Shown here piece after piece: positions 14,698-26,528 of a stretch of DNA of 34,707 nt. Source of the DNA: an uncultured Desulfovibrio sp. (lineage in GTDB: Bacteria; Desulfobacterota; Desulfovibrionia; Desulfovibrionales; Desulfovibrionaceae); assembly GCA_947176055.1 (NCBI GenBank), contig CAMWPE010000001.1:1-34707 (forward strand), in the 5' to 3' direction. The translations under genes and the position numbers were made by a program. The notes beneath the pieces are model-generated. The model worked only from the letters and a program-made list of their open reading frames with translations, had not been told where the DNA came from and did not search any database. Every line of letters starts with the position of its first letter. The stretch's first letter is position 1.

Positions 14698-15446
14698 TAT
14701 TTTTCCGCCCGCCGAAAATCTGGATGTCCTGGCAATTGTGAGGCCCACCAATGCAAACCGAGACAAAGCGTCGCCGCGGTTTCGCAACGCAGCACGCGAT
14801 CGCCAAAACTGACGGCGGAGAATCCGGCGCCCGCGAGAAGCTCAAGCTCGGTTTCGTCGAACCCCCCTTCGGGCCCTATGACATAGATAGTGTCGCCCGC
14901 CATACCAAGCCGATCGGGAGAAGCCATCGGGACGCCGTCGCTCTTCTCCCAGGGCTGAATTTTCCAGTCAAAATTCGCCGAAGCGGAGATAATATCCTCC
15001 GCGCCGCGGAAAACGCGGGTTTCCGGCAACCATGGATTATGCGATTGCTTGATTCCCGCGATCAGCTTCCCCCGGACCGCCCGGGCCAAATCCTCGTCCA
15101 GTCGGCCCTGGCCGCGGCGCGCGTCCCAGAGCCAGATCGCCCAGGCGCCAAGCTCCGCGGCCTTCTCCATAAAAAAATCGCGCCGGACGGCTTTGCTCAA
15201 AGCCAGGGCCATGGTCGGCCTTGCCGCGGGCGGCGGAACAAATTTTTCGGAGACTATCCGGAGAGAAACGCTTTTTTTCATTATCCGGGTTATCCGGCAT
15301 CCGGCTATACGGCCCTTGCCGTCCAGGAGCAGGGCTTCGCCGCCTTCCTTCAGGCGCAGAACATGGCAATGCCGGGCCTCGGACTCGTCGAGATCCGGCT
15401 CGTCGCCCCATTTTTCCGGAGGAAGATAAAAAGCTGGGATACTCAC
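14697..15446 (-). CDS. rsmE: 16S rRNA m3U1498 methyltransferase RsmE
   Basis: H..VLRL, EKAAELG, IGPEGGF and LRCETA SPOUT motifs. Confidence 0.94.
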   Translation of the reverse strand: MSIPAFYLPPEKWGDEPDLDESEARHCHVLRLKEGGEALLLDGKGRIAGCRITRIMKKSVSLRIVSEKFVPPPAARPTMALALSKAVRRDFFMEKAAELGAWAIWLWDARRGQGRLDEDLARAVRGKLIAGIKQSHNPWLPETRVFRGAEDIISASANFDWKIQPWEKSDGVPMASPDRLGMAGDTIYVIGPEGGFDETELELLAGAGFSAVSFGDRVLRCETAATLCLGLHWWASQLPGHPDFRRAEK

Positions 15447-17209
15447 GCCGAAACAGCCTCCCCCGCCTTGTCCGCGTCGGAGCGCGCGCGGCGTTTGCAG
15501 ATAGCCTTAACAGAATCCAGAATCGAAACCAGGCGTCCGTAATTCATTTTTATTTCCCGTCCGGATTCCGTAAGCTCGCAATCCGGCGGCGAGAGATAGC
15601 GCCGCTCAAGGTATTTGTCGCAAAGAATGGTTTCGGCGCAACGGATGGCCATTTCCGCCAGCTCGGGAAAATAGTTGCCAAGCTCGAACTGCAAATCTCC
15701 CAGAACCTTGACCGCCAGGCCGATCATCTTGCGGTAGGTGATCCTCTTCCCCTTATGCGTCCGGCGAGTGAGATCCTGAAGAGCGCGGACGCGTCTGGCC
15801 TGCTGAATATAGCTGAAGCGACCGCAGACTTCCTGATGCAGCTCGCGGGCGGAATCGAAGGAGTCCTTTTTCCTGACGTCATTCAGATACCCAGTCAGCA
15901 CTTTGCTTACTTCATGATAAAACTTGTCGTTGTTGCCGATCATGCGCCTATTATGTTTATTTAACCAAGTATAGAGAAATTTCAGCCTTTTTTCGTCCGT
16001 GTCCGTGTTTTCCACAATCTCCGAGCGCTTATATACTATTTTGCCGTAATATTCCCCTCGCACTATATCGTTTAACCGGAGGAACATATCCGTTTCGTCC
16101 TTAATGATATTGAGGCCGGAGAGGATTTCCCCCGTCCTCGGATGGAGAATTTCCTGCGCGGCGACGGACAGGGCGCGATCCTGGCGCAAATTGTCCGGAT
16201 TATATCTGTGCTGGCGATAAACGACGCGGATGATTACGACCCGCCTGTCCTTGTCCAGGAAAAAGCCTTTGCGGTCTATGGTTGAAAAAGCTTCTTCCTG
16301 ATCTTTTCCCACCGCGACGAGAGCTATTTTTTCCACCGTCGGAAAACGTCTGTTTTCGCCGTTGGAAACATAGGTCGTAATCGTCCTGTCCGATTGCCCC
16401 AACACGCGCAAAAGGAAATTTTCGCCCATTTTGTGCAACTTGCGCGCGAAAAGGGCGCTGGATGTGCGTCTTTCGGAAACAATGGGAAACCCGTACAATT
16501 CCATAAGGTATTGATATACGAACATCCTGTTGCGCTCGTACATTTCATGGTCGCCGTAAACGAATTTTCCTATTTTTATTCCGAATCTCTTGAGCTCGCT
16601 GTCAATATCCGAAGGGAAGGACGCGAAGACTCCCGCCAGATGAAACAATTTATCCTTGTCCAGGGCGAGCACTTGAGCCCTGTCCATTTCGAGAAGATAA
16701 GGCAACAGCGTTTCGTAATTGTCAAGCAGGGTAACATCCATGCCCCTGTGAGCGTAGCGGAGTTTATCCTGCATTTTCTTTGGAAGGCGCCCGCACAGGG
16801 CCCGAAGATTCTGGTCAGCCACCTGATTTTCCAGGGGACAACGCGAGCCGTCGCCGGAATCGGTTATGGAATGGAGTTTGTCAAACTGGAAGATTTCGGA
16901 AAAATATTCCAGAGGGCGCGCGAAAGCCACTAGCGAAAAGCCCGGCAACTCGGAATATTCCTGCATCGCGTTTTCGAATGACGGCAACAATTCCCGCGCC
17001 TCCACGAGGGGGTAGCCGGATATTTCCTGATATGGGCGAACCAGGCAATTGCGGATGTGAATGGCGTCGAGAAAAGACTTTAGACTGGCCAGATCTGTCG
17101 CCGCGACGGAGCCATAATCGTTGTTTTTCAGAAGCGGGATGTCGCTGTAAATTTCCTGCCAGGGCACCATTTTTATAATCGCCTTTTTCCAATGGCAATT
17201 TTCGCTCAA
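15443..17209 (-). CDS. Hypothetical soluble protein (588 aa)
   Basis: Long ORF whose stop overlaps the rsmE start. No motif recognised. Start uncertain (TTG 17209 or ATG 17170). Confidence 0.8.
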   Translation of the reverse strand: MSENCHWKKAIIKMVPWQEIYSDIPLLKNNDYGSVAATDLASLKSFLDAIHIRNCLVRPYQEISGYPLVEARELLPSFENAMQEYSELPGFSLVAFARPLEYFSEIFQFDKLHSITDSGDGSRCPLENQVADQNLRALCGRLPKKMQDKLRYAHRGMDVTLLDNYETLLPYLLEMDRAQVLALDKDKLFHLAGVFASFPSDIDSELKRFGIKIGKFVYGDHEMYERNRMFVYQYLMELYGFPIVSERRTSSALFARKLHKMGENFLLRVLGQSDRTITTYVSNGENRRFPTVEKIALVAVGKDQEEAFSTIDRKGFFLDKDRRVVIIRVVYRQHRYNPDNLRQDRALSVAAQEILHPRTGEILSGLNIIKDETDMFLRLNDIVRGEYYGKIVYKRSEIVENTDTDEKRLKFLYTWLNKHNRRMIGNNDKFYHEVSKVLTGYLNDVRKKDSFDSARELHQEVCGRFSYIQQARRVRALQDLTRRTHKGKRITYRKMIGLAVKVLGDLQFELGNYFPELAEMAIRCAETILCDKYLERRYLSPPDCELTESGREIKMNYGRLVSILDSVKAICKRRARSDADKAGEAVSA

Positions 17210-22865: not shown

Positions 22866-22898
22866 TATAAAAATGGGGCGTCCCCGGAAGGACGCCCC
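22866..22898 (-). terminator. Intrinsic terminator ending the rpmE-prfA-orf207-RNA transcript
   Basis: Minus strand GGGGCGTCC-TTCCGG-GGACGCCCC (9-bp stem) followed by ATTTTTAT. Confidence 0.8.
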
Positions 22899-22905
22899 GC
22901 GCTCA

Positions 22906-23072
22906 AAGAAAACTCCGCTCCGGCCATCGCTTTGGACCAATGACCAACGAATAAAAGACCAATGAATGCGGCCTCCGTCGCATGGCGTCGTCGCGACGCG
23001 TAAATGTTTTCATGCTATCGCCTTGATCGCCAAACGGATAGCCGCGAACAGGGCCGACGCGACAGTTTTCTT
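22906..23072 (-). ncRNA. Candidate structured ncRNA or 3' element downstream of the 207-aa helical protein
   Basis: Folded by hand. Closing stem AAGAAAACU/AGUUUUCUU + UCGC/GCGG + UCGGCC/GGCCGG. Internal hairpins at 23014-23042, 22985-22999 and 22966-22983. Unpaired UUGGUC x3 tract. Bounded by the stop codon and a terminator. Confidence 0.6.
22934..22966 (-). repeat. Imperfect 7-nt tandem repeats, (A/G)TTGGTC on the minus strand
   Basis: Plus strand GACCAAT GACCAAC GAATAAAA GACCAAT GAAT. GACCAA occurs at 22935, 22942 and 22957. Confidence 0.7.
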
Positions 23073-23073
23073 A

Positions 23074-23697
23074 TTACGCTTTTGACGGGGATTGCTCCGC
23101 GTCAAAATCTTTTTCATTAAATTCGTCAAAGGCCAGAATTGTTACGGTCCGCGCTTGATTCAGCGAGGCGATTTCGTCGTTGACAGAGGCGAGACTGTTT
23201 TTTAATTCGGCGATTCTCGCGCGCGTCCTGTCCAGGTCGGCTCCGTCGTACATATGGAGCCGCAAGATATAAATCTTGTTGTTTTCCGTAAAGCTTGTCT
23301 TGTAATAATCGGTATTTTTAATAATGGCCGGAAATTCGGCCGCGCTGTCGCCCGCGACCGAGCAAAATTCTTCCAGAATTTCGATTTCCCTCTGGATAAA
23401 TCCGGCTTTGAGCAGTTTCGCGCCAATTCCAAATCGTATATTGGCGTCCTCCGCGATCTTTTTCAGGTAAGCGATATATGCCTGGGTTTTCAGGCAGCGC
23501 GCGAGAGCCTCGTCGCTCTTCGCCTTTTTTTTGGCGATTTTCTCCTGAAATTCGCGCAAGTCCGCGTCGGTGGTGGCCGCGAATATCTCAAAATCGAATA
23601 CCTTGCGGGAATCCGCCAGCTCCTGGCGCAGTTCGCGAAGAGCGCCGCTATGGATTTTGATCAGGCTATGAATACGGGACAGGTTGACTTCTGGCAT
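23074..23697 (-). CDS. Helical coiled-coil protein, DIP1984/DUF6847-like by eye
   Basis: 207 aa with a GAGGAG SD, starting 28 nt after the prfA stop. Long amphipathic helices ending ..AEDAN.. and ..VNDEIASLNQARTVTI. Family assignment is pattern recognition only. Confidence 0.7.
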   Translation of the reverse strand: MPEVNLSRIHSLIKIHSGALRELRQELADSRKVFDFEIFAATTDADLREFQEKIAKKKAKSDEALARCLKTQAYIAYLKKIAEDANIRFGIGAKLLKAGFIQREIEILEEFCSVAGDSAAEFPAIIKNTDYYKTSFTENNKIYILRLHMYDGADLDRTRARIAELKNSLASVNDEIASLNQARTVTILAFDEFNEKDFDAEQSPSKA

Positions 23698-23725
23698 ATC
23701 AGGCTCCTCGCGCGGATCTACGCTC

Positions 23726-24799
23726 TTATCTCTTTTCCGCCTGCTCGCGCAAAGCGGCGGCTTGAGCCGACGTGGCCAGGGCGTCCAGCAACGGCGACAG
23801 CTCCCCTTCCATGATCTTGTCCAGAGAATAAAGCGTTAAATTTATCCGGTGATCCGTGCAGCGTCCCTGCGGAAAATTATAGGTCCGGATTCTTTCCGAG
23901 CGATCGCCGGTTCCTACCTGCGCTTTCCTGTCGGCGGACATTTCCATATTCCGCTTTTCCGTTTCGGCGGCGAGAAGGCGAGAGGCCAGCACTTTCATCG
24001 CCCTGGCTTTGTTTTTATGTTGCGAGCGCTCGTCCTGGCAGGAAACCACTATCCCCGTGGGCAAGTGCGTAAGGCGCACCGCCGACTCTGTTTTGTTCAC
24101 ATGCTGACCGCCGGCTCCTGAGGCGCGGAAAATATCGATGCGCAAATCTTCCGGTTTGATCTCCGCGTCCACTTCTTCCGCCTCCGGCATTACCGCCACA
24201 GTGGCGGCCGAAGTATGGATCCTTCCCTGCGTCTCCGTCGTCGGCACTCTCTGCACCCTGTGCGCTCCGGCCTCGTATTTTAGCCTGCTGTAAACCTTAT
24301 CTCCCGAAATGAGACAGATAATTTCTTTATAGCCGCCGCTGTCGGCCTCGGATGCGCTCAATATTTCGACTTTCCAGCCCATTAAATCGGCGTAGCGCGA
24401 ATACATACGGAAGAGATCGGCAGCGAACAGGGCCGCTTCCTCGCCGCCTGTCCCGGCCCTTATCTCGAGAATGATATTTTTTTCGTCCAGGGGATCGACC
24501 GGCAAAAGGGCTATTTTTAACGCTTCCTCGAGTCGCGGCAATTCTTCTTCCGCCTTCCGGATTTCCTCGTGCGCCATGGCCCTGATATCCGGATCATCGT
24601 CTTTCAACAGTTGGCGATTTTCCGCTATTTCTCCGGCCAATTGTTTGCGTCTGCGAAAAAGCTGGACAATTTCGCGCAGTTCCGCGTGAGCCTTGGCTAC
24701 TTTCTTATATTTTTCCGGATCATTAAATACTTCCGGATCCGCTAGAGAAGCCTCCAGTTCCTCGTACTTTCTCTCCAGCCCTTCGAGTTTGGCAAACAT
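23726..24799 (-). CDS. prfA: Peptide chain release factor 1
   Basis: [21 protein letters not shown] (RF1 PxT motif), GAGGQHVN and RTYNFPQ. Confidence 0.98.
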
Positions 24800-26156: not shown

Positions 26157-26528
26157 TCAGGCGTTGGCGGCTTTTAACATATCTTCCACAGCCTCTATGG
26201 GGGGCCGCGCGTCCGAAGCAAGATTGCACAGACTCTTCACGGCGAGCATTAACATATCGAAATTCATGGTAAGCGCGTCTTTTCCATTGTCAATTACGCA
26301 CAAATCGCCGTCCACGGAGAGTTTGTAAACGGAGCGGCTGCGTTCCTTCCCGGCTCCCCGGACGATATAATATACTTTTTCGCCAGTGTCCGTAACGTAA
26401 AGTTGCTGCCGGGTAAGGCTGCCGCTTTCCTCGTCAAAATGCGAGCATTCGGAAAAAAGACGTCCTTTAAAGCGCAACGCGTCGCCGTTGTCATGTTTCA
26501 GACTAATATCTTCCATTGTTCTGGACAC
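26157..26528 (-). CDS. Hypothetical protein (123 aa)
   Basis: Plausible beta-rich protein with a GGAGG SD, co-oriented upstream of rpmE. No motif recognised. Confidence 0.7.
   Translation of the reverse strand: MSRTMEDISLKHDNGDALRFKGRLFSECSHFDEESGSLTRQQLYVTDTGEKVYYIVRGAGKERSRSVYKLSVDGDLCVIDNGKDALTMNFDMLMLAVKSLCNLASDARPPIEAVEDMLKAANA

Follow-up and report, generated by a model that had tools for sequence, protein, structure and literature searches.

A gene for a 207-aa helical protein in an uncultured Desulfovibrio sp. is directly followed by a closed, structured RNA candidate that carries a tract of seven-nucleotide motifs, and the same gene–RNA layout was seen at all five of the other homologous loci that we examined. 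The pair is likely an undescribed RNA–protein particle. With a probability of roughly one half, our preferred reading is that the protein, a long form of the DIP1984 fold, would form an oligomer along the heptad tract of its stem-closed RNA and so build a ribonucleoprotein; transcription, processing, oligomerization and binding are the steps that we infer.

The candidate structured RNA and its setting

The window (the whole 34,707-nt stretch that we analyzed) is contig C1 of a 2.35-Mb assembly that is 87% complete. The minus strand carries an rpmE-like ORF (recognized from sequence), then a DUF1385 gene, prfA (release factor 1, identified with Pfam; 23726–24799) and the 207-aa ORF (23074–23697). 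On the 3′ side of that ORF come the 167-nt element, a terminator and the convergent gene secG. The gap from the prfA stop to the start of the 207-aa ORF is 28 nt, with a GAGGAG ribosome site at 23709–23704. Neither a promoter-like nor a terminator-like site was seen on the same strand between the two genes, so co-transcription with prfA is probable; judging by sequence, prfA, the 207-aa gene and the element probably share transcription at the window locus, with the module borrowing that of the prfA operon. Two other minus-strand ORFs were noted in the window: a 123-aa ORF upstream of rpmE (26157–26528), with a weak EXLDI-family match (E = 0.003) below the cut-off, and a 588-aa ORF at 15443–17209.

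The RNA candidate spans 22906–23072 on the minus strand. Its closing stem, P1, has a 5′ arm (23052–23072) that begins inside the second TAA stop codon of the 207-aa ORF and a 3′ arm at 22906–22925. The original prediction had described a stem of about 19 bp with two U-G wobbles at these positions, and P1 was indeed found as 19 pairs (9 + 4 + 6), both wobbles included, with pair probabilities of 0.95–1.0 beyond the first pair. An intrinsic terminator on the same strand (22866–22898), made up of a 10-bp stem at 22898–22875 and a U tail, starts 7 nt past the 3′ arm, which agrees with the proposal that terminator and element are separate. The proposed folding check also came out in favor of structure: the region 22866–23080 folds at −98.4 kcal/mol (z = −5.16), and 0 of 200 shuffles were as stable. 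The 167-nt element without the terminator gave z = −3.76. Its folding energy was −69.2 kcal/mol in the sense direction versus −57.5 kcal/mol in antisense, so that the sense strand is favored by 11.7 kcal/mol.

The interior of the element differs from what had been foreseen. Three inner hairpins (GCUAUC/GAUAGC, GCGUCG/CGACGC and AUGCG/CGCAU) had been proposed; these words exist in the sequence, but their pair probability was 0.00 and forcing them to form costs 9.5 kcal/mol. Instead, the MFE and centroid structures agree on one long irregular hairpin, P2 (23045–22968, minus strand), which occupies the same position in five homologous loci and has pair probabilities of 0.81–1.0 in the three helices checked. 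The apical region of P2 (23013–23000) is a shortened counterpart of a U-rich loop tract in the homologs. The helix listing for the window element held no clear homology-supported tract-to-loop candidate for a pseudoknot.

An Rfam covariance scan of the window returned no matches at gathering score, in line with the earlier view that the element is not a known tRNA, SRP RNA, 6S RNA, tmRNA or riboswitch; at E ≤ 5, a weak match to tfoR appeared alone, at 19 bits versus a cut-off of 70. A multi-copy REP or MITE element, which the original prediction had named as a competing explanation, is ruled out: the element is single-copy in the assembly, versus the many dispersed copies expected of such repeats. 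A look-alike of the terminator, 91% identical, lies at C2:11897–11929 after an unrelated gene, so the terminator is probably of a host type as judged by sequence, which suggests that it was present before the module arrived or was recruited afterwards.

Three DNA-type sequencing runs gave short pieces only. On a related-strain contig with a depth of 3, one P1 U-G pair is changed to U-A, and a heptad A is changed to G at the R position of the motif described below. The two innermost bases of the P1 3′ arm are also altered on this contig, with the partner arm lying outside its coverage.

Homologous loci, the heptad tract and mobility

A first GTDB scan for the gene gave no match. The gene was found in 4 of 111 genomes of the genus. 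An order-wide search gave matches in 3 of 401 genomes, including a weak partial match in a 477-aa frame that was dropped. To these were joined a phage contig and two loci from metagenomes. The locus of genome G080 recurs as L015 and as L016; the contig of G080 itself stops 152 nt past the stop codon. Five independent homologs besides the window come with complete downstream DNA (L007, L008, L014, L016 and the 26% GC phage locus L013), so that the comparison covers six loci in all; L007, L014 and L016 belong to one sub-branch.

All five of the other loci have a closing stem, a long hairpin whose apical loop is rich in U and, right after this hairpin, four to six heptads. This layout, together with the single copy in the window genome, supports the claim of a cognate structured RNA tied to the gene; homologs that lack a structured downstream region, which had been put forward as evidence against that claim, did not turn up among these loci. 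The element measures 167–265 nt across the six loci, with up to four extra hairpins. Folding z-scores for the homologs were −5.44 (L007), −1.88 (L008), −2.98 (L013), −3.21 (L014) and −1.61 (L016), and the sense strand was more stable than the antisense strand in five of the six loci. In L007, L008, L014 and L016, a separate hairpin that starts with TTTC and ends with GAAA or GGAA stands ahead of the closing stem, within the first 50 nt after the stop codon. It is absent from the window and from the phage locus and is possibly a processing or boundary signal.

The stem sequences are unalignable between loci. Within P2, a 7-bp consensus helix has changes on both sides in six of its seven pairs, and 0 of 500 shuffles reached its score; the structure was taken from the same alignment, and the signal is carried by the five homologs alone. 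In the MAFFT alignment, the window sequence is not in register with this helix, so that position, layout and heptad profile are the grounds for treating the window RNA as a putative homolog. A covariance model built from the five homologs did not recover the window element, whether in the window (E ≤ 10) or in the whole genome (E ≤ 5). When the window was included, the model matched the 4 of 111 genomes that carry the protein gene and no others, a result of low sensitivity that follows largely by construction. An Rfam scan of eight related loci found only tRNAs and one c4-2 RNA, none of them on the element.

The heptad tract of the window (22935–22970, minus strand) lies directly after P2 and is supported by leave-one-out and automatic profiles. 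Its five motifs, all ending in UC, are at 22970–22964, 22963–22957, 22955–22949, 22948–22942 and 22941–22935, with spacings of 7, 8, 7 and 7 nt. An unpaired repeat tract had been predicted here; the tract is real, as a 7-nt register that the original prediction had not mentioned, while its unpaired state is less clear-cut, as the thermodynamic model pairs part of it weakly, with an opening cost of about 9 kcal/mol. We infer that the tract would be single-stranded in the RNA. The family consensus is RYYRGUY, in which the last four positions (RGUY) and the 7-nt spacing are kept and positions 1–3 vary freely.

Lag 7 was the best or tied-best among lags 4–11 in all six loci, with P values of 0.067, 0.051, 0.056, 0.31, 0.055 and <0.001, which are marginal in five. 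A hand-phased profile from the five homologs, with the window left out, placed the window tract at rank 1 of 4,677,264 genome positions. Since the hand-phased tracts had been chosen with knowledge of the window, the analysis was repeated with automatic selection and phasing. The automatic procedure gave 5.9 bits at period 7 versus 0.9–2.7 bits at periods 5, 6, 8 and 9, and its profile put the window tract at rank 16 of 4.7 million positions; 12 control profiles from regions after prfA gave ranks of 490–134169. Leave-one-out profiles matched each held-out locus, with P < 0.0005 in four and P values of 0.0005 and 0.0145 in the remaining two.

A more distant relative, in Bradyrhizobium phage BDU-MI-1 (L027), also shows a closing stem, along with six heptads that contain GU, by a motif that was defined post hoc. 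The plain lag-7 test was not significant at this locus (P = 0.14).

The original prediction had the pair hitched to the rpmE–prfA translation operon. That description is right for the window, but it does not extend further: the gene was found in 0 of 17 genus relatives with prfA (three of the 17 loci had less than 300 nt downstream), and the other bacterial copies adjoin an esterase, nitroreductase or LysR gene. A conserved rpmE–prfA link was rejected, given that prfA is followed by different genes within the genus and that the other carriers are at unrelated sites. Because the neighbors of the other copies are unrelated, the module looks horizontally moved and its position after prfA, which is not conserved elsewhere, is incidental. 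Variation after prfA was seen across genus loci L029–L045, and in other families (L046–L057) a prmC-like ORF, recognized from sequence, was noted; the prfA 3′ end looks like a rearrangement point in the genus.

Around the other copies, a region of L007 (10938–14627; genome G115) contains a tRNA, a phage integrase and a c4-2 RNA, a P4-like element, about 3 kb from the module. The phage copy in L013 has tRNAs upstream and an RlaP nucleotidyltransferase directly downstream, and that in L027 has tRNA-Glu upstream and a ppGpp synthetase and RtcB downstream. No RNA-repair genes were found among the ORFs checked in four bacterial neighborhoods.

The 207-aa protein and its fold relatives

AlphaFold modeled the 207-aa protein with a pLDDT of 92.8 from a 60-sequence alignment. 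With this predicted model as the query, Foldseek ranked 3KDQ, the DIP1984 structure from Corynebacterium diphtheriae, first (TM 0.74 by target, probability 1.00, E only 0.093). The same entry, which lists four chains, ranked first in VIA-align, with an rmsd of 2.5 Å over 141 of 152 residues and a Z of 11.1, which falls under the caution line of about 13 for helical proteins. The other VIA-align matches listed had far fewer residues (short generic hairpins) or an rmsd above 5 Å. Structure rows from the ESM Atlas included DUF6847 clusters (TM 0.64–0.76 by target) and unnamed phage clusters. BFVD yielded seven phage proteins at E ≤ 0.001, with two giant-virus proteins just above that value. The fold relatives of the 207-aa protein include proteins of the jumbo phages Erwinia pEa_SNUABM_47, Caulobacter CcrColossus and Vibrio Vp_R1 and of the giant viruses Catovirus CTV1 and Yasminevirus.

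Sequence comparisons gave a different picture. The 207-aa protein had no family in Pfam, NCBIfam, PHROGs or PADLOC scans, and it gave no match at all, and hence none at cut-off, with the DIP1984/DUF6847 profiles (PF20935 and NF038048). Among 60 family members, these profiles gave weak matches in 2 and 3, with best E values of 0.0027 and 0.00059. A PF20935 search of the protein's own genome found nothing, and a profile comparison with a canonical DUF6847 protein was not significant (probability 1.8%). Identity between the long form and canonical DIP1984/DUF6847 is 12–14%. By sequence, the protein had no match in the PDB, where its profile reaches 3KDQ at E 0.15 only. A profile search for relatives recovered 55 representatives at E ≤ 0.001, of which 36 were at 1e-10. 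The window protein had no match in phage and plasmid records, nor did four distant relatives used as queries, and viral contigs searched with three distant relatives gave no match.

Taken on its predicted model, the 207-aa protein is best described as a long-form relative of DIP1984 by fold, and it is not a member by sequence. The model has the whole-chain helical hairpin of the 3KDQ type, and the predicted fold shares with DIP1984/DUF6847 an N-terminal strand and helix, long antiparallel helices and a C-terminal helix that ends in N-x-x-strand. It differs in its length, with roughly 50 additional residues and a conserved YYKxxFT insert, and in scoring below the family cut-offs. At 207 aa (184–236 aa in full-length relatives), it exceeds the 152–164 aa of the canonical proteins and the length of about 150–160 aa that characterizes the family. 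The invariant residues (S7-R8, Y74/Y77, N86, Y132-K133, T137, A177 and N180-Q181) are candidates for contacts with other subunits and with RNA. The pI of 5.8 is atypical for an RNA binder.

PF20935 had seven matches in the phylum, and the two above cut-off were the canonical loci examined, L018 and L019. Both of these genes also have long closing stems downstream. The window family differs from them in its heptad consensus RYYRGUY, and the RNA model had no match at either locus; the lag-7 test behind the two canonical genes was not significant (P = 0.65 and 0.80). About 140–190 nt past the DUF6847 stop, L018 and L019 share a short motif, ACAGGCGTAYTGT, inside the long closing stem, and L018 has an additional T-loop-like hairpin, GGTTCGAATCCC.

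Alternative readings and the proposed particle

Type III toxin–antitoxin systems (ToxIN, CptIN, TenpIN) have repeats, in the form of tandem 35–50-nt pseudoknot units, upstream of a nuclease toxin gene. The module described here is likewise small and patchy and joins a protein gene to a repeat-bearing RNA. By analogy, each heptad might hold one subunit of a toxic helical protein inactive, and loss of the RNA, whether through plasmid or island loss or through phage shut-off, would free the toxin and lead to addiction or abortive infection. This would suit a two-part module that sits at unrelated sites in 4 of 111 genomes of the genus and also on phages, with one copy (L007) close to a tRNA-linked integrase and with several RNA units per protein gene. 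We take septicolysin to be the same protein as DIP1984. One paper calls the septicolysin gene of a plasmid a putative pore-forming toxin whose role is unknown (PMC3358182), which would also speak for a toxin, and another names DIP1984 as a hypothetical plasmid protein (PMC10889530). Nevertheless, the RNA here is downstream of the gene, with no upstream repeats of the type III kind; its motifs are 7 nt long and lie within one closed RNA; and the predicted fold is a helical hairpin without an evident active site rather than a nuclease. No ToxN/CptN/TenpN-type family, nor any other type III toxin or defense family, was found for the window protein in Pfam, NCBIfam or PADLOC, the last of which assigned it 0 families and weakly matched LmuB in 3 of 60 members. 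We consider an RNA antitoxin unlikely. It is quite unlikely that the element is instead a cis-acting 3′ UTR, in which the protein binds the heptads of its own mRNA and sets its stability or termination, with no free RNA and no particle of further function. The element is directly 3′ of the gene and on the same strand in all six loci, as such a UTR would be; in the window it starts at the stop codon, and a strong terminator comes right after the closing stem in three of the six loci. However, closed multi-stem structures of this size, with their extra hairpins, exceed the needs of simple autoregulation, and the separate hairpin before the closing stem in four of the six loci suggests the boundary of a separate molecule.

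GC-rich DNA folds easily, the homolog-built covariance model misses the window element and the stems cannot be aligned, all of which would be expected of an ordinary 3′ region that is a decayed mobile element or a chance structure unlinked to the protein. We find this very improbable in view of the single copy, the z of −3.76, the strand asymmetry, the rank of the window tract (1 or 16 in 4.7 million versus at least 490 for the 12 controls) and the same layout in all five homologs, including a phage of 26% GC. Hardly credible is the idea of an antisense guide or decoy whose UUGGUY heptads pair with, or mimic, seven-base repeats in phage replication-initiator-like genes. A four-heptad pattern does occur in at least 121 viral-contig loci, 107 of the 121 listed being antisense to a long ORF, and six of the eight opposite-strand proteins shown resemble what we take to be phage replication initiators. 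The gene family, however, is present in 0 of the 121 listed loci, so the heptad motif alone is not diagnostic. Moreover, the window heptads end in C and those of phages L013 and L027 differ, which makes for poor complementarity, and heptad positions 1–3 vary freely. The likeness between heptads and phage repeats is most likely a simple-motif coincidence, and the conservation of RGUY and of the spacing is better explained by repeated protein contacts than by pairing with a target. In the viral loci themselves (L058–L178), four-heptad arrays of the ATTGGTY type are common in phages, with about 700 stretches estimated, and several of the proteins opposite these arrays are presumably replication initiators with repeated TNNQEP-like peptides.

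Two kinds of known RNA–protein assembly bear on the ribonucleoprotein that we prefer. Ro60 (Rsr)–Y RNA particles occur in RNA-repair operons. As in those particles, a stem-closed noncoding RNA lies beside its presumed protein, and RtcB or RlaP is found near two phage copies. The window system differs in having no TROVE/vWA fold (the window had no Pfam match to the TROVE domain, and the AlphaFold model is a helical hairpin) and no Y RNA or tRNA-like Rfam match, and the heptad register has no counterpart in Ro60–Y RNA. Among fixed-register RNA readers, TRAP takes 5 nt, the RSV nucleoprotein 7 nt and Cas7 6 nt per subunit. A fixed number of bases per subunit may serve as a working analogy for heptad reading; the folds of these proteins are unrelated to that of the window protein, and they are absent among the structure matches listed.

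The stems keep their structure and not their sequence, while the tract keeps both its sequence and its spacing; the simplest cause would be repeated recognition by identical subunits of the neighboring protein. As a ribonucleoprotein, the system might work as follows. The RNA would be made as the 3′ end of the gene's own transcript, here read through from prfA. The closing stem would hide both ends, so that the RNA survives or is cut out, and the closed RNA would offer the tract in single-stranded form. The protein would then form an oligomer along the tract, with about one subunit per heptad. The weakest step is the role. Most likely the particle would be a horizontally moved accessory with a part in RNA stress or repair, because two phage copies sit among tRNA and RNA-repair genes.

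A bolder version, which we offer tentatively, is that the heptad count sets the number of DIP1984-fold subunits and that this RNA-counted assembly, which would be of a new class, keeps a stress-related or anti-phage effector in store for as long as the RNA stays uncut. The window family would then be the branch with long proteins that read RYYRGUY, within a superfamily that may span gut bacteria, jumbo phages and, as judged by fold, giant viruses.

To our knowledge, the crystal structure of a DIP1984-fold protein dates from 2009, and the fold has no assigned function. We found no literature on an RNA partner of DIP1984/DUF6847; motifs described only in the supplements of papers could escape such a search, while curated ones would be in Rfam. 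If the preferred reading is true, the DIP1984-fold family would gain both a ligand and a direct assay. Pfam and NCBIfam profiles do not pick up the long-form branch, whose heptad also differs from that of the two canonical loci examined; this would provide a natural swap test of co-evolution between protein and motif. The system would also extend to the jumbo-phage and giant-virus proteins of similar fold, and bacteria and phages would have a new kind of ribonucleoprotein, with a dedicated RNA that is read in seven-base steps.
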